Shown: in pieces, positions 21,216 to 41,812 of the stretch
Position numbering within the stretch: the stretch's first letter is position 1
How the letters are laid out: the number at the start of each line of letters is the position of its first letter
NCBI GenBank assembly: GCA_964448115.1
Contig: CAYUVA010000015.1
Span: 3,953-67,952, forward strand
Length of the DNA: 64,000 bases
Direction of reading: 5' to 3'
From: an uncultured bacterium
GTDB taxonomy: Bacteria > CAYUVA01
Program-made: the position numbers and the translations under genes
Notes under the pieces: model-generated
Databases searched by the model: none
What the model saw: the letters and a program-made list of their open reading frames with translations, nothing else
What the model was told of the DNA's origin: nothing

Positions 21216-21482
21216 ATGCCTCTGGCAATAGGACTCCCGATAGCGATGTCGATCTGCTTGCAGGTGAAGAGGCTTCAGGGAACCGGCACGAAGATTATGA
21301 CACCTTGCGGAAAGAATGGCAGCCAAACGGGCTGGATGATGACCTTCACTTATGAAGGAACCGATGACAAAGGGAATGTGGTAACCTGCAGTTGCGATGT
21401 GATCCTGCAAAGCAGCGGTTATGACAGCCTGGATGATGATTCTAACTTGGAGCCGAATAGGTTTATGGTTGCACCCTATTAG
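21216..21482 (+). CDS. small hypothetical protein (weak call)
   Basis: 88-aa ORF with no recognisable motif. It sits in the otherwise empty pilin-tadB gap. Confidence 0.2.
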   Translation: MPLAIGLPIAMSICLQVKRLQGTGTKIMTPCGKNGSQTGWMMTFTYEGTDDKGNVVTCSCDVILQSSGYDSLDDDSNLEPNRFMVAPY

Positions 21483-30737: not shown

Positions 30738-32197
30738 TAAAGCAGGCAAACAGCATCCACAAGGCATTAGGGATCCTGCTGTTTTTTATGTTGTTTTTTT
30801 CTCCGCTGGTTTTTTCTCCCTTTAGCTTCAGTATCTTCAGGCAGCCGAAGCTATGGTTTTCCCTGACGCTAATTCTAATGGTGATGATCTTAAGAGGTTT
30901 ATTACCGAATTCCTCACCAGCTTACACCAGGCTCAAAAGTAAAGATAATTCCTCTCTCCCCAGCCCTCTCCCAGGGGGAGAGGGAGATCCTGTCCCCTCT
31001 CCCCGTGGGAGAGGGTCAGGGAGAGGGTTTAACTCTAATGGTTCTACTAATGTAATTTACACGAGTAGCGATAATAAAGGTAAACTTTTTCATGATTACC
31101 CGCTAAGGCTTCTGATTATCCCAGGCATCATCATTGCAGCGCTCAATATCGCCTTTTCATCGCACCCGCTGCTAAGTGCTAAATACTACTGCATTATAGC
31201 TTTGTTTTTTTATCTGCACCTGGTCGTTGCCGTTGATTTTTCGGGCATTGGCTCGCGGAGGTATCTGCTTATCGGGATGCTTAGCGGCGCAGTAATATCA
31301 TCGATCTACTCGATTATGCAGTTCATGGACATCGAGCCGATCTTCGAGCGAGCCGAGCGGGTCAAGTACCTCGGTTCAGCGATCTACAGCGCAGCCTTCA
31401 TGGGGCAGCCGACTTTGTTGGCAGGCTATCTTTGCGTGATGCCCTTTATTTTTCTGTGGCTTGCGATGCGTGCTAGCAAGCGCTGGCATAATATCGCAGG
31501 GCTTCTTGGATTTATGCTGACCACTGCGAGCCTGTTCGTAACCCAATCACGGGGCGCATTTGTCGGCTATGGAGTCGGCATGGTCGCCCTAACAGCGATT
31601 TTACTGAGATACCGCATATCGAGGCGGGCTGTAGGGTTCATTATAGCAATGATGCTATGTTTTATAGTGGCATCATCGGCTTATATCGCCACCAACAAGG
31701 ACTTTCGCGCCAAGATCATGCGCGGGATCAAGCTCAAGGGAAGCTATTCAGCAGCGACCAGGATCTTCTTCTGGCGGGTGGCGTTTGAGATGATGCGAGA
31801 GCGACCGATTATAGGCGTTGGACTGGGGAGATACGGCTATCATTACTATGATGTTGAGGTGATGCTCCACCGTGAGGGCAAGACCAGCCTAGCCACTGCC
31901 AAGGATGCGATGATCTTGCAGGCGCACAACGAGTTTATCCAGGTCGCCGCCGAGCTTGGTGCGCTGGGATTTTTATTATTTCTCGCCTTCAATCTAGGCA
32001 TCTTCAAGGTTGGCTTGCGCAAGCTAAGCCTTTATCGAGGTTATCCCCCAGATCAGCTATTCCAAGCCTGCCTCTTATCAGCGTTGATTTGCCTCTTGAC
32101 CTACAGTTTATTCAGCTTCCCGCTTCATATAGCCCCCTCCGCGCTGAACTATGTAGTGATAGGCGCGATGCTGTCGGGTAGGGGAAAAATTACTTAA
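30734..32197 (+). CDS. O-antigen ligase (Wzy_C) family polytopic membrane protein
   Basis: 487 aa with about 10-12 hydrophobic helices. Wzy_C-like loop (TQSRGAFVG...). Late motif ILQAHNEFIQVAAELG. The GTG start overlaps the secretin stop. Confidence 0.78.
   Translation: MIKQANSIHKALGILLFFMLFFSPLVFSPFSFSIFRQPKLWFSLTLILMVMILRGLLPNSSPAYTRLKSKDNSSLPSPLPGGEGDPVPSPRGRGSGRGFNSNGSTNVIYTSSDNKGKLFHDYPLRLLIIPGIIIAALNIAFSSHPLLSAKYYCIIALFFYLHLVVAVDFSGIGSRRYLLIGMLSGAVISSIYSIMQFMDIEPIFERAERVKYLGSAIYSAAFMGQPTLLAGYLCVMPFIFLWLAMRASKRWHNIAGLLGFMLTTASLFVTQSRGAFVGYGVGMVALTAILLRYRISRRAVGFIIAMMLCFIVASSAYIATNKDFRAKIMRGIKLKGSYSAATRIFFWRVAFEMMRERPIIGVGLGRYGYHYYDVEVMLHREGKTSLATAKDAMILQAHNEFIQVAAELGALGFLLFLAFNLGIFKVGLRKLSLYRGYPPDQLFQACLLSALICLLTYSLFSFPLHIAPSALNYVVIGAMLSGRGKIT
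30951..31027. repeat. compound palindromic G/C-rich repeat (two tandem hairpins plus a flanking partial copy) embedded in-frame in the ligase gene
   Basis: CCCTCTCCC(30964-30972)-AGG-GGGAGAGGG(30976-30984). CCCTCTCCC(30995-31003)-CGT-GGGAGAGGG(31007-31015). A further GGGAGAGGG at 31019-31027 faces CCTCTCTCCCC at 30951-30961. Confidence 0.6.
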
Positions 32198-32210
32198 ATG
32201 ATTAATTATC

Positions 32211-33701
32211 TTATTGAGGTCCAAAATATCCTTTAGATTTAGTTTGATAGAATTTGAAATCGATAGTTTTTTTATTATTAGAATATAATTTATCTATTAT
32301 TTTATTTATTTCATTTAAATTCATGCTTGATGGATCATTGATTTCCTTATTTGCAACCAATTCATCAACAATATTATCAATAATTCTCATAAATATTCCT
32401 TGTTGGAAATATTCCTTATTATATGGTGGATAAGTAAACAGTATATTCATACCTTTTTTGAAATTCATTATTTTAAATAAAGCTTCTTGGCATTTTTGAC
32501 AAATAATAGTCTTATTTTTTATAATATTATTAACTGAATTACCCCAATAATGCATTGATTTTTTATCAATATTGTTATTGTTATTATTCTCAAATATCTT
32601 TATTTCATTTATGGAATTATATTTTCTATATCTTATTTCTTCAACAGAAAATTTAACACTTCCAAATCCGAAGGGTTTACCAAATCCTATTTTATGATAT
32701 ATATTTAATGGCAATGCTAAAGAATAGGTAATTAAATTTAATAATTGGTTAGATATTCCATCAAAATATATTCTAAACACATCTGATTTACTATTCTCAA
32801 TCATTGCTTCTACTTTATACTTATATATAATGGGCAATTCATCTGAATTTATTCTTTCATTTCTTCTATCATTATAGTGTAATTTTCTCCAGTTATTTTG
32901 ATACCATTCAAGACATTTATTATGATCTTGATGATAATAAAATTTTCTACCTCTGTATTTATTTCCAATAAATTCTGCAAATTCTTTTCTATCAACAGTC
33001 CTATATTCTATATCTTTAGGAGTGAAATACCACCAATTTGACATGCTAGGAGATGGTCCCCCAAGATAAGATTTACCTTCAATATCAGGCAAAAAATATT
33101 TACTACTTAAATTTTCTACATTAATAGAGGCATCTTCAATAGATATTCTTCCTTTAAGAGAAAATGCATCATTATTATCATCTTCCTTTTCAAAGATCTG
33201 TCCAAATAAAAAAGTTGAAATATCTAATTCCCATTCATTAAAAGGATCTTGATTAAGAGGTCTCTTGGGTCGATATTTTTTACTAAGTGCATAATTCTCA
33301 TTCTTCCATATCCGGTCTCCTATTTTAATGGTATAAGAATCAAAGACATTATAGCCTTTATGTCTTCCTTTCGTTTTTCGTGAACCTTTTATTTTCTCAT
33401 ATGTTTGGTTGTATTTACCTAACCAACCATCAGTTACAGCCTCAATAAAGCTTCTTAACATTCCTCTAATAGTAGAGCTAGGAATTATGGCTTTATTATC
33501 TTCTCTGTAAAATTTACTTTCTTTTATTCTTTTTTCGCTCTCTGGAATCTGTTGACCCACAATATGTACAGGAGTCAATGCTTGAATATATAGCTCTATA
33601 TATCCTTCATATAATTCTCCCGAGGTCAAATCCTCATATTTGAAGAGATTTGGCTTATCACCAAACGGCACGAAATCATAAGGATTAGGTGGATGTGACA
33701 T
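32211..33701 (-). CDS. RAMP-superfamily protein (Cas7-group, Cmr6/Csm5/TIGR03986-like)
   Basis: 496 aa. The N-terminus MSHPPNPYDFVPF is the P-Y-[DN]-F-V-P start I associate with TIGR03986-type RAMPs. Beta1 YIQALTPVHIVG, AIIPSSTIRGMLRS, and glycine-rich loop GFGKPFGFGSVKF. 17-nt overlap with the upstream gene. Very AT-rich. Confidence 0.72.
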   Translation of the reverse strand: MSHPPNPYDFVPFGDKPNLFKYEDLTSGELYEGYIELYIQALTPVHIVGQQIPESEKRIKESKFYREDNKAIIPSSTIRGMLRSFIEAVTDGWLGKYNQTYEKIKGSRKTKGRHKGYNVFDSYTIKIGDRIWKNENYALSKKYRPKRPLNQDPFNEWELDISTFLFGQIFEKEDDNNDAFSLKGRISIEDASINVENLSSKYFLPDIEGKSYLGGPSPSMSNWWYFTPKDIEYRTVDRKEFAEFIGNKYRGRKFYYHQDHNKCLEWYQNNWRKLHYNDRRNERINSDELPIIYKYKVEAMIENSKSDVFRIYFDGISNQLLNLITYSLALPLNIYHKIGFGKPFGFGSVKFSVEEIRYRKYNSINEIKIFENNNNNNIDKKSMHYWGNSVNNIIKNKTIICQKCQEALFKIMNFKKGMNILFTYPPYNKEYFQQGIFMRIIDNIVDELVANKEINDPSSMNLNEINKIIDKLYSNNKKTIDFKFYQTKSKGYFGPQ

Positions 33702-34788
33702 TTTTTTCCTCCTTTATTCCTAAGGCTTCTCTTAGTACTTTTTTCGCTTCCTCATCGAATTCAAGTGTTATATTTTCTCTACGTAAAAGATCCTCAAGAA
33801 GATCTTCTTTATTATTTTCCTCACTGGAATCTGCTGTTTTCTTAACCACATATTCCTTCTCATCTTCATTAACTATACTCACCCTCCCCCTGCCGACGGA
33901 GGAGAGGGCGCCGAAGCGGATCATCCCATACTCGATCTCACGCTTCCATAATGCCATAAGCGCCATGTGTACACGCTCAGGCTCACGGATGGTGAAGGTA
34001 ACCTCAAACTCCATATTCCTGCCGAACTCTACGAAGGTGTGCAGCCCGCCTGACACCGATGCATGTGTTACCCTGTCCAGCGGATTGCGCATCTTTATAT
34101 GACGAATAGCGTTTGAGGGATCATAAACACTATCAGGCGTCCACTTTCCACAAGCTCCAGGTTCTTTCGTGCCTCCTGATAGTTTCCCTACCTCAATCTG
34201 CAAGCGCCCTTTATATCCTTTAGGTTCCTTTTTATTTGATTTTTCCTTGTCCTCTTGCTTCTTGTCGCTGTCCTCTTTACTCGTGTCGAGGGCTTGTCCG
34301 AACAAGCTAAAGACTAACTGCCACCCGGGATCCTTTAGCGCATTTTCTTGTTTTTTCTTGTAATTTTCATCAGCTTCTTCCTTTTTCTTCTGTATAAAGG
34401 CATCCCAATATTTTTCCTTCACCAGGTGTCTGATAGTCCAATTTCTCAAGGCTCCCCTGATCGCAGAGGCAGGGATGGTGTAAACAGGTTTTACTTCATT
34501 GTTCTCAAGAAACAATGTCATATAAGGTAGAGTAACCTGGGAAAATTTTTTATCATCCTCTCGGTCCGATTTATCTCTTGGTATCATTCTAAATTGACAT
34601 TCGCTTCCCCTTGCTTTTCCTATAGGCTTACCATCATTACCTATCGGGCTTTGTCGCCAAGAGGCATTGTGCGTACTCCGAATGAGCAGAGGTGTCTCGG
34701 TCTTAAATGTCCATTTAATGACCGCCAGGCTAGTCAGCTCAGAATAATCAGGTATCTTTTTGTCTTTATTACTAGTTTCGTTGATCAT
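33685..34788 (-). CDS. RAMP-superfamily protein (Cas7-like, large insertions)
   Basis: Start moved to the ATG at 34788 (MINETSNK...), giving 367 aa. FKTETPLLIRS, YTIPASAIRGALRNW, SLFGQA, and G-rich loop GALSSVGRGRVSI. 17-nt overlaps with the genes on both sides. Confidence 0.68.
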   Translation of the reverse strand: MINETSNKDKKIPDYSELTSLAVIKWTFKTETPLLIRSTHNASWRQSPIGNDGKPIGKARGSECQFRMIPRDKSDREDDKKFSQVTLPYMTLFLENNEVKPVYTIPASAIRGALRNWTIRHLVKEKYWDAFIQKKKEEADENYKKKQENALKDPGWQLVFSLFGQALDTSKEDSDKKQEDKEKSNKKEPKGYKGRLQIEVGKLSGGTKEPGACGKWTPDSVYDPSNAIRHIKMRNPLDRVTHASVSGGLHTFVEFGRNMEFEVTFTIREPERVHMALMALWKREIEYGMIRFGALSSVGRGRVSIVNEDEKEYVVKKTADSSEENNKEDLLEDLLRRENITLEFDEEAKKVLREALGIKEEKNVTST

Positions 34789-35824
34789 TTTGATTATCCT
34801 CCAATGCCTTAAAGAAGGCTTCTTTTGCTTTTTGTATGAATTCATCCTTCTTACCAGTTATATCTTCAAGGGCATTATAACCAGCTTCGTTCTTATCCAT
34901 TAGATTCTTTATCCAATCGCTTATTTTATCAGATTTCAACTCCTCTATCTTTGTTAGATTCCATTCAAACCTTCCAAATCCCCTAGTTGCCATAGCACCG
35001 AGGGTTAATGGGTAGATATCGGAGTTGAATCCCTCAAGCCCGAACAATAGCAGTCCAATCTCTAGTGGGGATAAATTCTGCCCACAGATTTCCACTTTGA
35101 ACTCGATTCCCTCCGGCACCACCTCAAAGTCATATAAAAGATGTTTACCGGCGGTGCCAGTTTTAGGATCAATAGCTACAGACATCAAACGATATGTGTA
35201 TTCATTAGGTTTCCAATCCAATAACCAGTTCTTTTTATTATCATCCTTATCATCCCAATTGGGTATGCTATTACTTGAAGGATTAGAGATGCATTTGGCA
35301 TCCCAGAATTCGAGTTTGCCTTCATGATATGTTGTGCCAAACATGGTCCCAAGCCAGCCATAATTTTCAAGGATTTTTTTCTTTTTTAATTTTAAATACT
35401 CTTCCTTCTTTTCTTTATCTGTAAGCATTCTACCATCTTTTTCTAATTCTTTTATTATATTTTCTAATTCTTTATTAAACTCTTCATCTTTAATAGCCCT
35501 ATATGATCTATTTAATTCATTACTATGTAATTTATAAAGATTATTCGTATCTTTCTTGTTAATTGATCTAATCACTTGATCTAACCAGCTATATAGACTT
35601 CCTTGTAATGCACTACCTGGTATGATTGGTTTACCCTTAAAATCTTTTACGATATAGGTATCGATTTTTTTCCTTTTTTCTCCCTTTCTTTCGACTGTTT
35701 TTTCTTCTTCTTTTCCTGAGCCTATGTGAAGTGGCGATAAGGTTTTGAGTGTCCCCGTGATTTTTATCCTGTTATCGAAGCCTTCTCCTTTGAATTTAGG
35801 CTTGTCATTCGTTGAGTTGCTCAT
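34772..35824 (-). CDS. RAMP-superfamily protein, Cas7 (Csm3/Cmr4-like)
   Basis: 350 aa. LKTLSPLHIGSG, KIDTYIVKDFKGKPIIPGSALQGSLYSW, MFGTT, and G-rich loop ATRGFGRFEW. A K/E-rich helical insertion follows the first core motifs. Confidence 0.8.
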   Translation of the reverse strand: MSNSTNDKPKFKGEGFDNRIKITGTLKTLSPLHIGSGKEEEKTVERKGEKRKKIDTYIVKDFKGKPIIPGSALQGSLYSWLDQVIRSINKKDTNNLYKLHSNELNRSYRAIKDEEFNKELENIIKELEKDGRMLTDKEKKEEYLKLKKKKILENYGWLGTMFGTTYHEGKLEFWDAKCISNPSSNSIPNWDDKDDNKKNWLLDWKPNEYTYRLMSVAIDPKTGTAGKHLLYDFEVVPEGIEFKVEICGQNLSPLEIGLLLFGLEGFNSDIYPLTLGAMATRGFGRFEWNLTKIEELKSDKISDWIKNLMDKNEAGYNALEDITGKKDEFIQKAKEAFFKALEDNQNDQRN

Positions 35825-35835
35825 TTTTCCCTCCC

Positions 35836-37662
35836 TTATAGATATTTATTGTAGAAACATACATTTGTTATTAGCACTTCCCCAAAGCCATTCTCCGGCA
35901 CAAAGGGGCATTTATCCCACGCTTTATCCCCATTAGCTTCATATTTCTCTTTAGCCCAATCTGGTATAGGTAATCCCTTATTATACCATTCATACATCTT
36001 ATTTTTTGCTTTGTCCTTTATTTTAAGTTTAAAGATACTTCCCGCTTTCGTTAGATAAAATGGATAATATTTTTTATTGCCTTGAAATCTCTTTAGAAGA
36101 TAACCGCCCTTCATAACCTGTGCTGCAAAGAAATCAACTAATTTGAGTGATCCGCCTGATACCTCGTTCCAATATTTATTATAAAGCTTTTTGAGTTCAT
36201 CGCCCGAATGCTCCATTATCATATCATCCGGATTGATCATCAGCGCATCCGATTGCAGGGCAATGAGCACCTCTTTGGTGTTCTCATCAAGCTGAGGTGG
36301 CTGGTGGCACTTATGCGCGGGCAGTGGCTCCAGGTATGCCTTGATTTTGCTGCATCCCTTGCCGAGTCGGCGAAAATGGGAATGTACAAACTCAAACAAA
36401 TCCTTTAGCACTGCATTTCTTTCATTTTCATCCACTCCATCCAACATAACCTCTCCGAGCCATAATATTGGTGCTTTATTGCTATCATGAGGACAGACAT
36501 ACTGGTAAGTATATAATGAGTTTTCTTTAGCGGATCGGAAATCACCCTCTATAGCAGTCCTTGAGTAGAAAAAGCGCCGCGGCGATACCCACCCGAAACG
36601 TTTTTTAATGTAAGAGTCATCCTTCCAATCAACCTGGAACTTTAAAACTCCTCGCTTAATAACATCCTTTTCGTAATCTTTGTTATCGAATGTCAGTATA
36701 TTCAAATAACATCCATTAACCTCCGCAATTGAATAAGGTATCACAATCGGTCTCGGCTTTTCCTTATAAGTAGGAAATGCGTGGGTAAAGCGAATTTTGC
36801 TGAAGTTTTCTTTTAGTTTTGCGAACTCATGATTTCCTGACACGACTTCTTTATTTAAACTATCTGGATCGGTTACCCTGTTTATATCAGCAGCTAGAGA
36901 GCCTTTGATGACTGCTCCGCTGATTATTTCTTCAGACTCAAGATAATTGCCCTTTTTCCTCGTACCTCCGAGCAGTAAAGGCTCCTCAGCCTCTATCCGT
37001 AGAAGGTAGCGTGTTTGGTTATTCTCTGTGGGTGAGTTATTGGGAACATTATCATTGACCTCGCATCGCTTAAGCTCGCATTTCTTAAGTTCGATGTCCA
37101 CACTCTGCACAGCGCCGAAGCCGACGGTCTTGAAGCCACCAAAGCCTGTAATCCACCTCAACGCAGGCTTCAGGGCATTGCATATCTCATCCGCCTTCGC
37201 TTCATCTAGGGCATAGAAAGATATTTTACCATTAAATTTAACAGTCATCCCTCTTGGGAATGGCATTTCAATAGATAAAAGTGCAGTTTCCTTTGTGGTT
37301 TTAAATGTCGGATCAATGCTTATGCGGTGGGCGTATTCGTTATCCAGAGTCTTTTCCAGGGGATAGAAATTGGATATCTCTAAAAGTCCTCTGTGGGGCC
37401 CGGGGTCATTTTCATCAGCTCCCTTGCCAAATAGTTTTTCTATAAATGATTTGCTAGATGTATTAAGCTCCTTCATCGCTTCTCGCAGCTTACCCTTGAT
37501 ATGACTCGAAGGGATGCAGATTCTATCCATGAAGTCTCGATGAAACATAACATCGATGCCGTACTCGGTTTTGCTAGTCGCCTTGACCATTATAGGCGCT
37601 CTTACATGGAAGGTAACATTAAGCTCGTATTTGAGTGCAAGTTGATTATTAGTTGTCATCAT
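35836..37662 (-). CDS. double-RAMP fusion: N-terminal Cas7-like domain plus C-terminal Cas5 (Cmr3/Csm4/Csx10)-like domain
   Basis: 608 aa. Domain 1 (aa about 1-195): GIDVMFHRDFMDRICIPSSHIKGKLREA, KLFGKG, GFGGFKTVGFGAV. Domain 2 (aa about 215-608): LLRIEAEEPLLLGG...EEIISGAVIKGSLAADI, C-terminal YLTKAGSIFKL and PENGFGEVLI. Confidence 0.68.
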   Translation of the reverse strand: MMTTNNQLALKYELNVTFHVRAPIMVKATSKTEYGIDVMFHRDFMDRICIPSSHIKGKLREAMKELNTSSKSFIEKLFGKGADENDPGPHRGLLEISNFYPLEKTLDNEYAHRISIDPTFKTTKETALLSIEMPFPRGMTVKFNGKISFYALDEAKADEICNALKPALRWITGFGGFKTVGFGAVQSVDIELKKCELKRCEVNDNVPNNSPTENNQTRYLLRIEAEEPLLLGGTRKKGNYLESEEIISGAVIKGSLAADINRVTDPDSLNKEVVSGNHEFAKLKENFSKIRFTHAFPTYKEKPRPIVIPYSIAEVNGCYLNILTFDNKDYEKDVIKRGVLKFQVDWKDDSYIKKRFGWVSPRRFFYSRTAIEGDFRSAKENSLYTYQYVCPHDSNKAPILWLGEVMLDGVDENERNAVLKDLFEFVHSHFRRLGKGCSKIKAYLEPLPAHKCHQPPQLDENTKEVLIALQSDALMINPDDMIMEHSGDELKKLYNKYWNEVSGGSLKLVDFFAAQVMKGGYLLKRFQGNKKYYPFYLTKAGSIFKLKIKDKAKNKMYEWYNKGLPIPDWAKEKYEANGDKAWDKCPFVPENGFGEVLITNVCFYNKYL

Positions 37663-39179
37663 TCACCCTCCTTTGGAACATAATCCCATAGATCTGCGAT
37701 CCAATAGAGCCACTTATATTCGTGGTCATTGATGATTTTGTCTCGCGTATTCTTAATAATTCTTTTATCAACAGGTGGCATTTCTACATTATCTAATACA
37801 AATTGAAAATGTTTTTCAACACCTTTTAAGTTGCATTTTCTCAGTTCATCCATGATTTGATAGAGCTTTGTTCTAGGGAAGTTGTTTTTGAATGCCAGGA
37901 TTGTTACAGTAACATCACAGAAATTCTCCTTAGTAATCAGCAGGTCATCGAATATCTTATTTTTGTAGAATGTGTTGGTGAACTCTTGGACTCCCCCTTG
38001 CAGTATGTCGATTGATTCGAGTATGAGGTAGTGCATTGCGTTGCCTTTTTCGTGTTTATCAGGTGGATCGGAACCGAGCTGTTTTTTCGCCATATCAACT
38101 AACTGGCTAGCGAATCGTTTCACTTGGAGTATGGGTGCTTTGTGATTGCAGAAAACCACGCCGAATGAGTGAGTGAGTGGCATACTACCAAAATTCATTT
38201 TATCGCAGTTCTCAAAGAAGTGCCACATGAAATCCCAGCCTAGCCAAGCCGGCAGCGCTACAGAAGCCTCATCCCCACCCCAGAGGGTGATCTCGATGCG
38301 ACATTTATTTTCATTGTTATCATTATAAATGAAACAATTCTTATCCATATAATTCAGAATAAATTCTTTGATAATTTTATTTCTACCACTATCAAGAGCA
38401 TTCTCAAAATTTCTATAATCATCTGGATTAACACAATTTTTATTCTTTAATTTGGTAAATTTATTTCCATCGAAATATATAAAAGCCTTTTTACCTCGAA
38501 GAACATCGGTGATATCATGTGGTTGATCTTTTACTAGTTGCTCAAAATCCCAAGTGTATATTAATGATTTTTTGTTATTTAGTATTTCTCTATTTATATA
38601 ATCTTTTTTCAGATTTCTACCCATTTTTTCTCTTCTTATATAAGTTATACGAGACAGATCTTTCTTAATTTTATCATAATGCATAGCTGGGCGCACTCCA
38701 TCCCAATTGCAATATGGTTTTTCTTTATAATCGACCTCTTTTTTAGGTAAAATCACTGTCGGTTGCTTGAATTGTTGAAGCCGTATCTTATTTTGAAGCT
38801 TTTCTTTATCTTCCTTAAAATCGCCACTTTCTTCTACAGCAGCACCGATAAAAGATGCTTCGTTTTTAGTATATTCCCGAGCAAAATTAAGTGCTTTATT
38901 AACTATTGTTTTGATCTGTTCTTCACTTTCATACTTCTTTTTTGTTTTATAAATACCAATACTTCCACCTGTTGTTATTGGATCAAGTAAAGAAGTAAGA
39001 TCAGAATTTGTATTAGGGTGTATTTTAAGGTCCGTAAACTTCACCGCATTCCTTAAAAGCAAGGATCCGCCGCGGATGGTGCTGATGTCGTCTGTGTCAT
39101 AGACGAAGCTGTCCAGGTTAACTGCCTCAATCTGAATGTAGTATTTCTTTTTCTCTGTCATTTTCTCACCTCTTGTCAC
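37659..39179 (-). CDS. small HD-less Cas10-like protein (two Palm/cyclase-like domains, GGDE motif)
   Basis: 506 aa. N-terminal Palm-like segment (YYIQIEAVNLDSF...ISTIRGGSLLL...ITTGGSIGIY). Second Palm has KAFIYFDGNKF (metal Asp), WGGDEASV (GGDE = nt 38268-38279, checked codon by codon) and THSFGVVFCNHKAPILQVKRFASQLVDMAKK. Helical C-terminus. No H-D motif region. 4-nt overlaps with both neighbours. Confidence 0.68.
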   Translation of the reverse strand: MTRGEKMTEKKKYYIQIEAVNLDSFVYDTDDISTIRGGSLLLRNAVKFTDLKIHPNTNSDLTSLLDPITTGGSIGIYKTKKKYESEEQIKTIVNKALNFAREYTKNEASFIGAAVEESGDFKEDKEKLQNKIRLQQFKQPTVILPKKEVDYKEKPYCNWDGVRPAMHYDKIKKDLSRITYIRREKMGRNLKKDYINREILNNKKSLIYTWDFEQLVKDQPHDITDVLRGKKAFIYFDGNKFTKLKNKNCVNPDDYRNFENALDSGRNKIIKEFILNYMDKNCFIYNDNNENKCRIEITLWGGDEASVALPAWLGWDFMWHFFENCDKMNFGSMPLTHSFGVVFCNHKAPILQVKRFASQLVDMAKKQLGSDPPDKHEKGNAMHYLILESIDILQGGVQEFTNTFYKNKIFDDLLITKENFCDVTVTILAFKNNFPRTKLYQIMDELRKCNLKGVEKHFQFVLDNVEMPPVDKRIIKNTRDKIINDHEYKWLYWIADLWDYVPKEGE

Positions 39180-40735
39180 GTATCTTTATCATACTTATCT
39201 AGTTTGTACAATATCAAAATATAAACAAGAAAAATTATAATTGCAATCAGATAAATTCCCTTGAAATATGGAAAAAACACTTGCCAAAATCCTGGATATT
39301 CTCCTGGGACTGATAAAAAGCCTACAATGAAACTCGATCCCTCGAAAAACAAAGCCACAATAGCGACTAATATTCCCCACCGATTTACTTTCTCAATAAA
39401 TTCATCCTTAAGGTATTGATAAGTGCGGTTAATCTCTGCTTCAACTTCCTTGTATAGCTTAGGAATTTGAAAACTCTCGTACATTGTATCGGTCATCTCG
39501 ATCCCCTGATCCTGATTTGTGAGTTCAAGGAACCAATACATATTAGAAAATTCGATAAAATCACTGCTAATTTTTCTAAATTTTTTCCTTTTGTTTTCTT
39601 CAATTATATCCTCTGTTGCTTTTGTAATTCTGAGCGAAAAATAAACCAACTGTGTTCTGTAGAATAATCCTAATAGGGCGATCTGATAATACATGGTCTT
39701 AAAATGTTTATAAAAGGTTTTATTATTAAAACCTTTATTAGGATCATCATTATCACTGAAAACTAAATATGCTATTGAATATCTAGTAAAACCATATATC
39801 GATCCCAAGTGTTGCCAACGCCTATATAGATGCGACTCCATTTCTTCACGAATAAATGACTCGTAATATTGCCAGTCTGAACCATGTTTATCAACATATA
39901 ACAATCTTGAAAATCCGCGCAGGACTTTATTATCGTAATCTTGAAGCAAATGATTTTTCAAATCATCTGGTATATCAAGAGAAACGAATGTATTAACAAA
40001 CATTCTATCATCAAGTATTGGCAGGATATAACGATCTTCAAAATTTGGCTTATTTTCAATCTCAATATTTCCTGAATTAAAAAAACTATGAATTATGGAA
40101 CAAATTACATTATTTATCTTAGGATGTTTATCATCATAATCAGGCTTTGATACATTATTTGAATCTATAAAACAATGATAACTATAGAAATCTTTAATCA
40201 TAAACTTTATACGAAGTGCGATATTTTGGTATTCAACTTGTTCTTCATAAGATGGGTATAGTAGTCGTGATAGATTATTGAAATCTAATACATCTTTAAA
40301 ACATACCTGATTTAAATCATTTTGGACATATTCAATCTGAAATGAAAGAATAAATATATCGGGTTCAAATTTATGTAGTACAAGATATGTGATATTAAAT
40401 TTATAAGAATTATCACTGTCGAATAATTCTACCTCAAACATACTTTCATTTTCATTATCTTTTTCATTTTTATCAAATGCTAAATAAGTTCTCAATAAAA
40501 TATTATTTTTTTTATTTTGATCTTTTCCATAAGTCAACAATGCTTCCCTTACATACGAATGAAAATAAATATATTCTTGCCAGTATTTCTCTTTTTCATA
40601 AGGCTTTTCTTCCCAATTAAGATTACCATTATATATTGGCAAATCATCCCCTTTCTTTATCCTATCCTTTCTTTCCTCCATCACAAACGGAAACATGAAA
40701 ATCGTCGAAAACTTCTTTACCTTAAAGTGCATCAT
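39176..40735 (-). CDS. CorA-topology membrane protein (large cytoplasmic domain plus two C-terminal TM helices); candidate membrane effector
   Basis: 519 aa. A roughly 450-aa soluble N-terminal region ends in a long helix (TYQYLKDEFIEKVNRW). TM1 is GILVAIVALFFEGSSFIVGFLSV, then a short loop (PGEYPGF), then TM2 IYLIAIIIFLVYILILY. No GMN motif. The ATGA overlap with the upstream gene was checked at 40732-40735. Confidence 0.45.
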   Translation of the reverse strand: MMHFKVKKFSTIFMFPFVMEERKDRIKKGDDLPIYNGNLNWEEKPYEKEKYWQEYIYFHSYVREALLTYGKDQNKKNNILLRTYLAFDKNEKDNENESMFEVELFDSDNSYKFNITYLVLHKFEPDIFILSFQIEYVQNDLNQVCFKDVLDFNNLSRLLYPSYEEQVEYQNIALRIKFMIKDFYSYHCFIDSNNVSKPDYDDKHPKINNVICSIIHSFFNSGNIEIENKPNFEDRYILPILDDRMFVNTFVSLDIPDDLKNHLLQDYDNKVLRGFSRLLYVDKHGSDWQYYESFIREEMESHLYRRWQHLGSIYGFTRYSIAYLVFSDNDDPNKGFNNKTFYKHFKTMYYQIALLGLFYRTQLVYFSLRITKATEDIIEENKRKKFRKISSDFIEFSNMYWFLELTNQDQGIEMTDTMYESFQIPKLYKEVEAEINRTYQYLKDEFIEKVNRWGILVAIVALFFEGSSFIVGFLSVPGEYPGFWQVFFPYFKGIYLIAIIIFLVYILILYKLDKYDKDT

Positions 40736-41610
40736 TGCCGAATGATCTCCTTGATGAAACGAGCAGCAACGCTCTGGAAGCCATCATCGCACTCGCTCGA
40801 TGCCTTTACTCCTAGAAATCCGCCATAAGCATCGGTTCGATGCCAGCGTTCACAACCTTTCGGGAATAACTCAAGTAGGTCTATTCCCCGCATGATAAAA
40901 TCCCTTGAGCCATAAAGGCTCAGCTTGCTTATCCCAGCGCTATTCTCTGTGATCACCATGATATCAGGGAGGCTCTTTAGCTTGCCTTTGCGATACAGCT
41001 CGACCTGAGCCTCGGTCTTGGGCAACTGGTGGAGATCGGCGATGATCGAAGTCCGATCCGAGCTTGTTCTGACAATGGCAAGCTTCCCGACCTGCTCACG
41101 GTTTTTATAATCGTTGCTCAGCAGCTCGATCTCCTCATCGCTGTACCCTTGAGCCTTTATGTCCAGTTCACGAATCCGCCTTATCTCATCCAGCTTTGCT
41201 CCTTCGGTGATCATCCCTAGTACATGGCTCTTATCATTGGCAGCAATGAGCTTTTCCTCTCTGGTAAGCTCATGCCCGATTAGCTCGGCAAACTGTTCGA
41301 GGGAGCTTTTTTCGCTGGAGCGGTTCAAGGATCCATAATCGTGGTGATCTATGATGATCAGATTATGCCCTGCCTCGATAAGTTCCTTCTCTTTGGCAGG
41401 TCCGGGGATCTCCACGATGATCACCGTCTCCTTGAGGTCTTCAAAGGTCGGCTGCGGCTCTTTTTCCAGGCGTGCGCCCCAGGGCTGCTTGGATACACGG
41501 ACATCCATGCCATATTTCCTTGCTATCTCGATTATCCTGGCGCTCTCTAGATCGTTCTTGGGAACGATCAATGAAGCATCTATTTTAGCTATTTCAGCCA
41601 ACTTTTCCAC
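40732..41610 (-). CDS. DHH-motif protein (possible NrN-like phosphoesterase; divergent)
   Basis: 292 aa. TVIIVEIPGP...(17 aa)...LIIIDHHDYG resembles DHH-family motifs II-III (DHH = nt 41341-41349, checked). The canonical motif I DxD and the DHHA1 GGGH motif are not evident (only AYGGF). The track start is GTG with no obvious RBS, so the 5' end is uncertain. Confidence 0.4.
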   Translation of the reverse strand: MEKLAEIAKIDASLIVPKNDLESARIIEIARKYGMDVRVSKQPWGARLEKEPQPTFEDLKETVIIVEIPGPAKEKELIEAGHNLIIIDHHDYGSLNRSSEKSSLEQFAELIGHELTREEKLIAANDKSHVLGMITEGAKLDEIRRIRELDIKAQGYSDEEIELLSNDYKNREQVGKLAIVRTSSDRTSIIADLHQLPKTEAQVELYRKGKLKSLPDIMVITENSAGISKLSLYGSRDFIMRGIDLLELFPKGCERWHRTDAYGGFLGVKASSECDDGFQSVAARFIKEIIRQ

Positions 41611-41812
41611 TCTAAATATTTGCTAAAATGCCGTAATTAAGTTTATATAACCTATTTTGATATTTCAATAGTCAATCTCAGAGTTACAAATATAGCCTTA
41701 AGGTTCAATGTCATCATAATGTTGATAATTTGTCCTTACATTTCAAGGATATAGCCACATTTTTATCTAATGCTCATTGGGATAAAAGCCAGATATCATT
41801 ATGAACTTTGGC

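Follow-up and report, generated by a model that had tools for sequence, protein, structure and literature searches.

The 64,000-nucleotide stretch of DNA analysed here (hereafter the window) comes from an uncultured bacterium (contig CAYUVA010000015.1, positions 3,953 to 67,952), and carries on its minus strand a run of seven co-directional, tightly packed genes: nrn, corA, cas10, cas7-5 and three separate cas7 genes, all of them intact open reading frames (ORFs), with 4-nt overlaps. The third gene, cas10, is the subject of this study. Its product is a true CRISPR type III Cas10 that lacks an HD domain, and it is very probably the large subunit of an effector resembling type III-D2, which would make SAM-AMP (S-adenosylmethionine, SAM, joined to adenosine monophosphate), act through the membrane protein CorA, and be reset by the phosphodiesterase NrN. 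The nearest solved structure is chain B of entry 9wxh in the Protein Data Bank (PDB), the Cas10 belonging to the type III-D2 effector from Gammaproteobacteria bacterium HyVt-522 (9wxh, 9wxi and 9wxj; Mitsuda et al., Nat Commun 2026, PMC13294483), and the domains and residues listed below were mapped onto this chain.

An uninterrupted ORF occupies positions 37659-39179 of the minus strand, with its stop codon at 37659-37661. The first-pass annotation, made from the sequence alone, had placed a 506-residue Cas10-like protein in this interval and had left the strand unstated. The ORF stands as the longest form, read from a GTG at 39179 that overlaps the stop codon of corA, and a reading of the same interval on the plus strand was rejected, as its translation is riddled with stops. 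An ATG at 39161 gives a product of 500 aa, and this rather than 506 aa is most likely the true length, because a strong Shine-Dalgarno-like GAGGTG precedes this ATG, the database copy of the protein (P0001) is 500 aa long, and the N-termini of the family members begin near it. In what follows, the residue numbers of motifs and pocket residues refer to the 506-residue form and the domain limits to the 500-residue product.

37659-39161, minus strand: cas10, 500 aa from the ATG, third of the seven operon genes.
39167-39172, minus strand: strong Shine-Dalgarno-like GAGGTG, read from the sequence, 5 nt ahead of the start codon at 39161.
38772-39161, minus strand: Palm1, about aa 1-130, beta-alpha-beta-beta-alpha-beta in the AlphaFold model.
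Within Palm1: pocket residues for SAM and adenosine triphosphate (ATP), namely E18, N21, L22, S39 and G71-G72-S73.
38496-38771, minus strand: Linker, about aa 131-222, holding Q136 (SAM recognition) and a nearly invariant CxxDGVRP.
38007-38495, minus strand: Palm2, about aa 223-385, with D237-G238, F258-E259 and GGDE.
38457-38480, minus strand: IYFDGNKF with the metal-binding D237-G238, aa 234-241, in Palm2.
38268-38279, minus strand: GGDE at aa 301-304, the catalytic motif, corresponding to GGDE 345-348 in the III-D2 Cas10 of known structure.
37662-38006, minus strand: C-terminal helical bundle, a Cas11-like C-terminal domain (CTD), about aa 386-500, ending in a conserved WxxLADLWDY.

The identification as Cas10 follows from the agreement of sequence, profile and fold evidence. 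PADLOC Cas10 profiles match the protein at E=4.8e-27, and 9wxh_B is matched near full length at E=2e-35, with 31.5% identity over 473 aligned pairs. The AlphaFold2 model, made with 46 homologues (mean predicted local distance difference test, pLDDT, 91; predicted template-modelling score 0.91), contains two ferredoxin-like Palm modules in a single chain, the second of which holds the GGDE motif. The CTD helices (391-490, high pLDDT) align with the CTD of 9wxh_B up to its residue 582, and W484, L491, W492, D493 and Y494 in this region are conserved in the family. When the model was compared with the PDB by Foldseek, using a library older than 9wxh, the top 50 matches were all Cas10, Csm1 or Cmr2 chains. 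The best of these are type III-D proteins, the III-Dv Cas10 from Synechocystis (8s9t_C, 555 aa, E=4e-15, TM score 0.70) and the III-D1 Cas10 from Saccharolobus (8bmw_K, E=3e-12), which share only 13% sequence identity with the window protein in the structural alignments; their complexes have Csx19, Cas7-2x or many single Cas7 paralogues, and no coupling to CorA or SAM-AMP is reported for them.

The Cas10-like identity proposed by the first-pass annotation is thus borne out, and the motifs that it quoted are found where it had put them, GGDE exactly at 38268-38279, and coincide with family-invariant columns (ISTIRGGSLLL at aa 32-42, TTGGSIGIY at aa 69-77, SFGVV at aa 338-342 and AKK at aa 364-366). 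It was also right that the Palm-like beginning leaves no space for an HD nuclease: neither Pfam nor NCBIfam detects an HD domain, and there can be none because Palm1 starts at the N-terminus, at about residue 7 of the AlphaFold model. Lack of HD is the rule for Cas10 of type III-D, where this domain occurs in 3% of loci (PMC11229360). The protein had further been called minimal, being far shorter than the 700-1000 aa typical of III-A and III-B Cas10 proteins; the length is correct, but its own family has a median length of 498.5 aa (range 457-621, among 81 members), so that at about 500 aa the window protein is of ordinary size for its clade.

The mapping onto 9wxh_B, in which the chain numbering equals the numbering of the paper (PMC13294483) plus 20, as verified on 26 residues, gives E18, N21, L22, S39, G71, S73 and Q136 as pocket and catalytic residues of the window protein, together with D237, G238, K240, F241, F258, G301-G302-D303-E304 and K366. 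In an alignment of the 81 family members, S73, D237, G238, F241, G301, D303 and E304 are invariant and G302 is present in 80, while the SAM-type residues E18, N21 and Q136 occur in 75, 79 and 80 members, respectively. The earlier view of an intact Palm active site agrees with these counts, since D237, G238, F241, G301, D303 and E304 match residues that are essential in the solved homologue. In the HyVt-522 Cas10, the substitutions D286A, D307A, D347A and E348A and the double substitution E8A/Q186A each abolish SAM-AMP synthesis (PMC13294483), and the counterparts of D286, D307, D347, E348, E8 and Q186 in the window are D237, E259, D303, E304, E18 and Q136. By this alignment, the residues proven by mutagenesis to serve SAM-AMP synthesis are conserved save for one conservative change from D to E. 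E8 and Q186 stand at the positions where, in a type III-A Cas10 that makes cyclic oligoadenylate (cOA), D253 and K379 bind the triphosphate of the acceptor ATP (PMC13294483); with E18 and Q136 aligned to them, the acceptor pocket of the window protein is of the SAM type and not of the D/K type that binds an ATP triphosphate.

The other six genes of the operon are the following.

40732-41610, minus strand: NrN-like DHH phosphodiesterase, 292 aa, at the head of the operon, with the DHH at D88-H89-H90.
39176-40735, minus strand: CorA-like membrane effector, 519 aa, with a soluble N-terminal sensor domain and C-terminal transmembrane helices.
35836-37662, minus strand: Cas7-5 fusion subunit, 608 aa, with the RNA-cleavage Asp (D37) present.
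34772-35824, minus strand: first separate Cas7, 350 aa, corresponding to the first Cas7 domain of Cas7x3.
33685-34845, minus strand: middle separate Cas7, longest ORF 386 aa, corresponding by position to the middle Cas7 domain.
32211-33701, minus strand: terminal separate Cas7, 496 aa, of the TIGR03986 type, corresponding to the last domain (Cas7.4) of Cas7x3.

The four genes directly downstream of cas10 encode repeat-associated mysterious proteins (RAMPs) that match chains C and D of one and the same solved complex. Cas7-5 matches 9wxh_C over its residues 14-598 (E=1.1e-57) as well as the PADLOC profile Csm4 III-D (E=9.4e-45), and its D37 is the equivalent of D29 in the homologue. The first Cas7 is recognised by TIGR02581 (Csx7, E=2.4e-25) and by residues 16-82 of 9wxh_D (E=2.4e-17), and the terminal one by TIGR03986 (E=1.7e-40) and by residues 875-1088 of 9wxh_D (E=6.1e-13). 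A search of PDB sequences with the middle Cas7 gave no match; it is recognised by the Pfam family RAMPs (E=4.8e-11) and by PADLOC Cas7_IIId (E=3.7e-11), and orthologues of 316-370 aa occupy the same position in the relatives. The longest ORFs of the first and middle Cas7 overlap by 74 nt (34772-34845), an overlap that is cut to 17 nt when the middle gene is read from an ATG at 34788; it probably starts there, with a product of 367 aa. I considered whether the three genes could be a frameshifted pseudogene of a fused Cas7x3, and rejected this, as the three-gene layout is kept in the closest relative (L001) and in about 25 related loci.

Upstream of cas10, CorA matches the PADLOC profile of that name over residues 10-511 (E=5.8e-74) and is 36% identical (E=9e-83) to the C-terminal part of an NrN-CorA fusion protein in L001; its C-terminus is hydrophobic in translation, and a search of PDB sequences with it returned no match. 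The nrn gene overlaps corA by 4 nt. Its product matches the PADLOC profile DHH_CorA (E=1.4e-23) and the solved NrN 9lq9_A (E=1.6e-15); the alignment with the latter pairs up the DHH and AANDK motifs, and the DHH is intact. With the N-terminal domain of the same L001 fusion the product shares 43% identity. Scans with Pfam, NCBIfam and PADLOC detected neither CARF nor SAVED in the operon or its flanks, and Csm6-2 was likewise not found there. The first-pass annotation, when it remarked that no CARF or SAVED sensor is encoded nearby, had missed CorA, a sensor-effector without CARF, and NrN, both just upstream. Nor was a toxin-antitoxin module seen in the operon or flanks by Pfam and PADLOC, the NrN gene being found in that place.

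Housekeeping genes flank the operon: FTCD, a secretin and a Wzy-type ligase lie to one side of it, EngB, AnmK, signal peptidase, acetate kinase, NDK and POR to the other. Five housekeeping proteins, looked up in clusters made at 90% identity, are all singletons, and the acetate kinase reaches at most about 70% identity, to proteins from metagenome-assembled genomes of Coatesbacteria, Riflebacteria, WOR-3 and Atribacterota, a mixture of phyla that supports no firm taxonomy; the uncultivated host has no close reference genome. The GC content is 0.28-0.42 in the operon region (window positions 32000-41700) against 0.45-0.52 in the flanks, a low-GC island that suggests horizontal acquisition of the operon. 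A scan for promoters and terminators was uninformative in this AT-rich DNA, with 48 promoter-like matches where 35.5 were expected, and the sole plausibly placed promoter-like site lies upstream of nrn at 41668-41640. A perfect 12/12 match to the sigma-70 consensus (TTGACA-18-TATAAT) is present on the plus strand at 32496-32525, antisense within the last Cas7 gene; in DNA so rich in AT it may have arisen by chance, or it may serve as a promoter of antisense transcription.

The closest characterised system is the HyVt-522 III-D2 effector, in which immunity needs the GGDE motif and CorA (PMC13294483). Its Cas10 and that of the window are both devoid of HD and have the same domain order (Palm1, Linker, Palm2, Cas11-like CTD), the same GGDE, the same metal-binding Asp and the same residues lining the SAM pocket (E, N, L, S, S, Q). 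Both systems have a Cas7-5 fusion as partner and corA immediately upstream, and the Cas7 genes of the window are colinear with Cas7x3. They differ in that Cas7x3 of HyVt-522 is fused, whereas the window has three separate Cas7 genes; in that a VapBC-like toxin-antitoxin module is apparently replaced by the NrN phosphodiesterase in the window; and in that cas6 and an array are associated with the HyVt-522 locus, whereas the 64-kb window has none. The two Cas10 proteins are only 31.5% identical, the D307 of HyVt-522 is a Glu in the window, and the Cas7-5 loop bearing W351 is absent. Under the formal definition of III-D2 (PMC13294483), the Cas7-5 subunit is present here and the fused Cas7x3 is not, and the locus is most aptly called III-D2-like, with its Cas7 subunits unfused and NrN as the predicted off-switch.

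A second likeness is to the type III-B Cmr/CorA/NrN system of Bacteroides fragilis (Chi et al., Nature 2023, PMC10600005), which also has an HD-less Cas10 together with CorA and an NrN DHH phosphodiesterase. That system signals by SAM-AMP, as is predicted for the window, and the Trp associated with SAM-AMP2 is absent in both. Its backbone consists of Cmr1-6, in contrast to the III-D2-like backbone of the window, and it recognises SAM by D70 and E151 (PMC13294483), as against the E/Q pair here. In a phmmer search with the window Cas10, no chain of the B. fragilis Cas10 came up at E<=10, and at this sensitivity the two proteins show no detectable similarity.

From homology, fold, residue conservation and gene context, as established in this analysis, I infer the chemistry, the mechanism of activation and the roles of CorA and NrN. 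As in the solved homologue, Cas10 would assemble with Cas7-5, the three separate Cas7 subunits and a CRISPR RNA (crRNA). The Linker of the HyVt-522 Cas10 binds the 3' anti-tag of the target RNA (PMC13294483), and on a non-self target RNA the non-complementary 3' anti-tag would engage the Linker and shift and align Palm2 relative to Palm1. With SAM seated in the acceptor pocket by E18, N21, L22, S39, S73 and Q136, its 3'-OH could attack the alpha-phosphate of an ATP held on two Mg2+ by D237, D303 and E304, giving SAM-AMP. This signal would activate CorA, resulting in membrane disruption and growth arrest; NrN would hydrolyse it and so switch off and reset the system, and cleavage of the target RNA by D37 of Cas7-5 (equivalent to D29) would end synthesis. 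NrN degrades SAM-AMP specifically, and not cA2-6 or pApA, and CorA binds SAM-AMP (PMC10600005). A SAM-AMP-degrading enzyme (NrN, DEDD or a SAM-AMP lyase) encoded next to corA or fused with it is one of the features that mark the SAM-AMP pathway (PMC10600005). With CorA in the locus, NrN adjoining corA and a SAM-type pocket in Cas10, all features open to a test on sequence place the locus in that pathway.

The first-pass annotation had suggested that the product may not be a standard cOA. This is probably correct: SAM-AMP and SAM-AMP2 are the products of the nearest homologue that has been characterised (PMC13294483). In that system, W351 in the Lid of Cas7-5 is required for SAM-AMP2, and in the W351A variant SAM-AMP goes up and SAM-AMP2 is abolished; the missing Trp is also the explanation given for the fact that B. 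fragilis Cmr makes SAM-AMP only (PMC13294483). The Lid loop of about 10 residues that carries W351 is absent from the Cas7-5 of the window and from 70 of 71 Cas7-5 proteins of the family, being shared only with L062, from a metagenome-assembled genome (MAG) of Methylobacter tundripaludum. Because the window Cas7-5 lacks the Trp-bearing loop for the second adenylation, SAM-AMP is probably the main or only product, without SAM-AMP2.

A number of observations weigh against a SAM-AMP-making III-D2-like effector. Identity to the characterised enzyme is only about 31%, and activity here is predicted. E259 replaces the adenine-contacting D307, which when changed to Ala gives an inactive enzyme, and it is the sole Glu at this position among the 81 members; in the window, R43, G72, I74, T242 and E377 stand where the homologue has L33, A122, W124, G291 and K425, of which W124 can be changed to Ala in the HyVt-522 Cas10 without harm (W124A is tolerated; PMC13294483). 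The CorA proteins of III-B and III-D2 are very divergent, and direct binding of SAM-AMP has been shown only for the III-B CorA of B. fragilis (PMC10600005, PMC13294483). The prediction of SAM-AMP as the only product rests on a loop alignment. In the 64-kb window no CRISPR array was found, whether by TRF, Rfam, a finder of direct repeats or a custom detector of k-mer chains, and profiles of cas6, cas1 and cas2 from related loci gave no match at E<=10. The one 25-nt repeat detected, in two copies at 21327 and 21424, looks like chance.

That the module is an orphan or in decay, its immunity lost, is an unlikely explanation of these absences. It would fit the lack of array, cas6, cas1 and cas2, when 36 of 83 related loci have arrays and 45 have cas6, and the position of the operon as a low-GC island amid housekeeping genes; yet none of the seven ORFs is broken, 4-nt overlaps couple them tightly, every catalytic residue is kept, and type III modules are often served by arrays elsewhere in the genome, where the array and cas6 could also lie in this case, the window covering 64 kb of an 84-kb contig. 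E259, together with R43, G72, I74 and T242, could point to another donor nucleotide or to a conjugate of SAM other than SAM-AMP, the position equivalent to D307 being the one at which the N6 of the donor's adenine is read (PMC13294483); this, or a module armed in trans by a distant array, or both together, I consider a decidedly long shot. Somewhat less far-fetched, while still improbable, is that SAM-AMP2 is made as well as SAM-AMP, as it is by the closest characterised homologue (PMC13294483), whose catalytic centre is conserved in the window protein. A different aromatic residue could substitute for W351 in three dimensions, but the loop is missing here as in nearly all relatives, and the Cmr complex of B. 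fragilis, also devoid of the Trp, yields SAM-AMP only (PMC13294483).

Synthesis of a conventional cOA, acting on CorA or on an unrecognised sensor, is very improbable. The GGDE Palm chemistry is common to cOA synthases, and a response to cA6 is suggested by Hoikkala et al. as a possibility for some CorA clades, with a cA6-activated CorA speculated for the Actinomyces clade (PMC11229360); nevertheless, the pocket has the E and Q of the SAM type and not the triphosphate-binding D and K, the co-transcribed NrN has an intact DHH and belongs to enzymes that do not cut cA2-6 or pApA (PMC10600005), and the operon and its flanks were found to lack CARF, SAVED and Csm6-2. The remaining alternative is that the protein is not Cas10 at all, and is instead a GGDEF diguanylate cyclase or a stand-alone mCpol of the Panoptes type. 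mCpol is a stand-alone single-Palm protein which works without RAMP subunits or crRNA, and like the window Cas10 it is a small, HD-less, Palm-domain synthase of a nucleotide signal. The short length, the GGDE motif and a Pfam match below the curated cut-off (Cas10-Cmr2_palm2, residues 236-368, E=1.2e-3) could be taken in this sense. However, this match is the sole one in Pfam, where no other family, GGDEF included, reaches E<=0.1 (NCBIfam gives no match); in the model a single chain carries two Palms as well as a Cas11-like CTD, the gene is transcribed together with Cas5- and Cas7-type genes, four RAMP genes matching chains of the same solved complex, and none of the top 50 fold matches is a GGDEF protein. 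With the match to 9wxh_B and the Foldseek matches, this alternative is effectively refuted, and both a GGDEF cyclase and an mCpol were rejected on profile, fold and gene context. The SAM-AMP-making, III-D2-like Cas10 is the reading I retain.

I also surveyed the family more widely. A protein search gave 61 relatives, mostly of 470-530 aa and at best 36% identical, from Nitrospirae, Deltaproteobacteria, Electrothrix, Thermoanaerobaculia and one Asgard archaeon among others, and a genome scan gave 295 loci in many phyla, Methanothrix included. Archaeal sequences are found among the close members, namely P0003 (Candidatus Jordarchaeaceae archaeon, Asgard lineage) and L017, L022 and L040 (Methanothrix or Methanotrichaceae). 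The archaeal and multi-phylum spread indicates wide horizontal transfer of the short Cas10 module.

For 83 of these loci the DNA was fetched and annotated with profiles seeded from the window proteins. CRISPR arrays are present in 36 of them and cas6 in 45, as mentioned above, with cas1 in 23 and cas2 in 20. The Cas7 layout of the window (Cas7-5 followed by three single Cas7) is seen in about 25 loci, including L001; other loci have Cas7-5 with a double and a single Cas7, or Cas7-5 with Cas7x3, the canonical III-D2 layout. In L050 and L063, both Thermoanaerobaculia MAGs, a single ORF of 1915 and 1957 aa, respectively, lies downstream of Cas10, in which Cas7-5 and three Cas7 domains are apparently fused. 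Such a giant protein would be a Cas5-containing analogue of the single-protein Cas7-11 idea, and it still has Cas10, CorA and a free-standing NrN as its companions.

CorA is found in about 50 and NrN in 24 of the 83 loci, and NrN is either a protein of its own, like that of the window, or joined to CorA at the latter's N-terminus or, apparently, to the last RAMP. The NrN-CorA fusions in L001 (7550-9985) and L002 (6680-9172) were confirmed by BLAST, and such proteins measure about 800-920 aa. NrN domains also occur in L004, L012, L044, L045, L051, L057, L059, L064 and L069. In L049 (a Geobacter MAG) and L078 (a Myxococcales MAG), the ORFs of the last RAMP are about 1000-1015 aa long, with an NrN domain apparently at the C-terminus of the terminal Cas7; if true, such a fusion would anchor the enzyme that degrades the signal to the effector itself. 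L002 and L014, both on JACQXF010000079.1 of a Nitrospirae MAG, have pairs of HEPN/MNT nucleotidyltransferase toxin-antitoxin genes on both sides, followed by cas6, a fusion of reverse transcriptase with Cas1, and cas2. Many loci with the Cas10/Cas7-5/three-Cas7 layout have neither CorA nor NrN on the fetched DNA (L005-L008, L013, L017, L019, L020, L022-L025 and others), despite the family-wide presence of the SAM-pocket residues.

Within Palm1, the segment between the Ser of RGGS and the Ser of GAS is 95 aa long in HyVt-522; in the window it measures 35 aa, and in the 81 relatives 25-38 aa. The insertion of about 60 aa in 9wxh_B (residues ~72-132) is thus missing from the window protein, and it is absent from all 81 relatives surveyed.

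In this study I describe a short, HD-less Cas10, a probable SAM-AMP synthase, which is a divergent example of a kind characterised between 2023 and 2026, its signal SAM-AMP being already described. The unique change from D to E at the adenine-reading position adds to its interest. According to a classification paper of 2025, III-D loci encode no enzymes that cleave SAM-AMP, which left it unclear what signal is used by III-D systems with CorA (PMC12669027). The bona fide NrN gene in a III-D-type module, recurring in 24 of 83 loci, bears on this remark: NrN is common in this III-D-type clade with CorA. The survey also suggests that the solved HyVt-522 complex is atypical, as hardly any relative shares its Palm1 insertion of 60 aa or its W351 loop, and for this reason SAM-AMP2 signalling may be the speciality of a subclade and not a general trait of III-D2. 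Finally, the unfused Cas7 genes found here, together with the 2+1, threefold and all-in-one fusions of the related loci, document the stepwise path of fusion proposed to lead towards Cas7-11.

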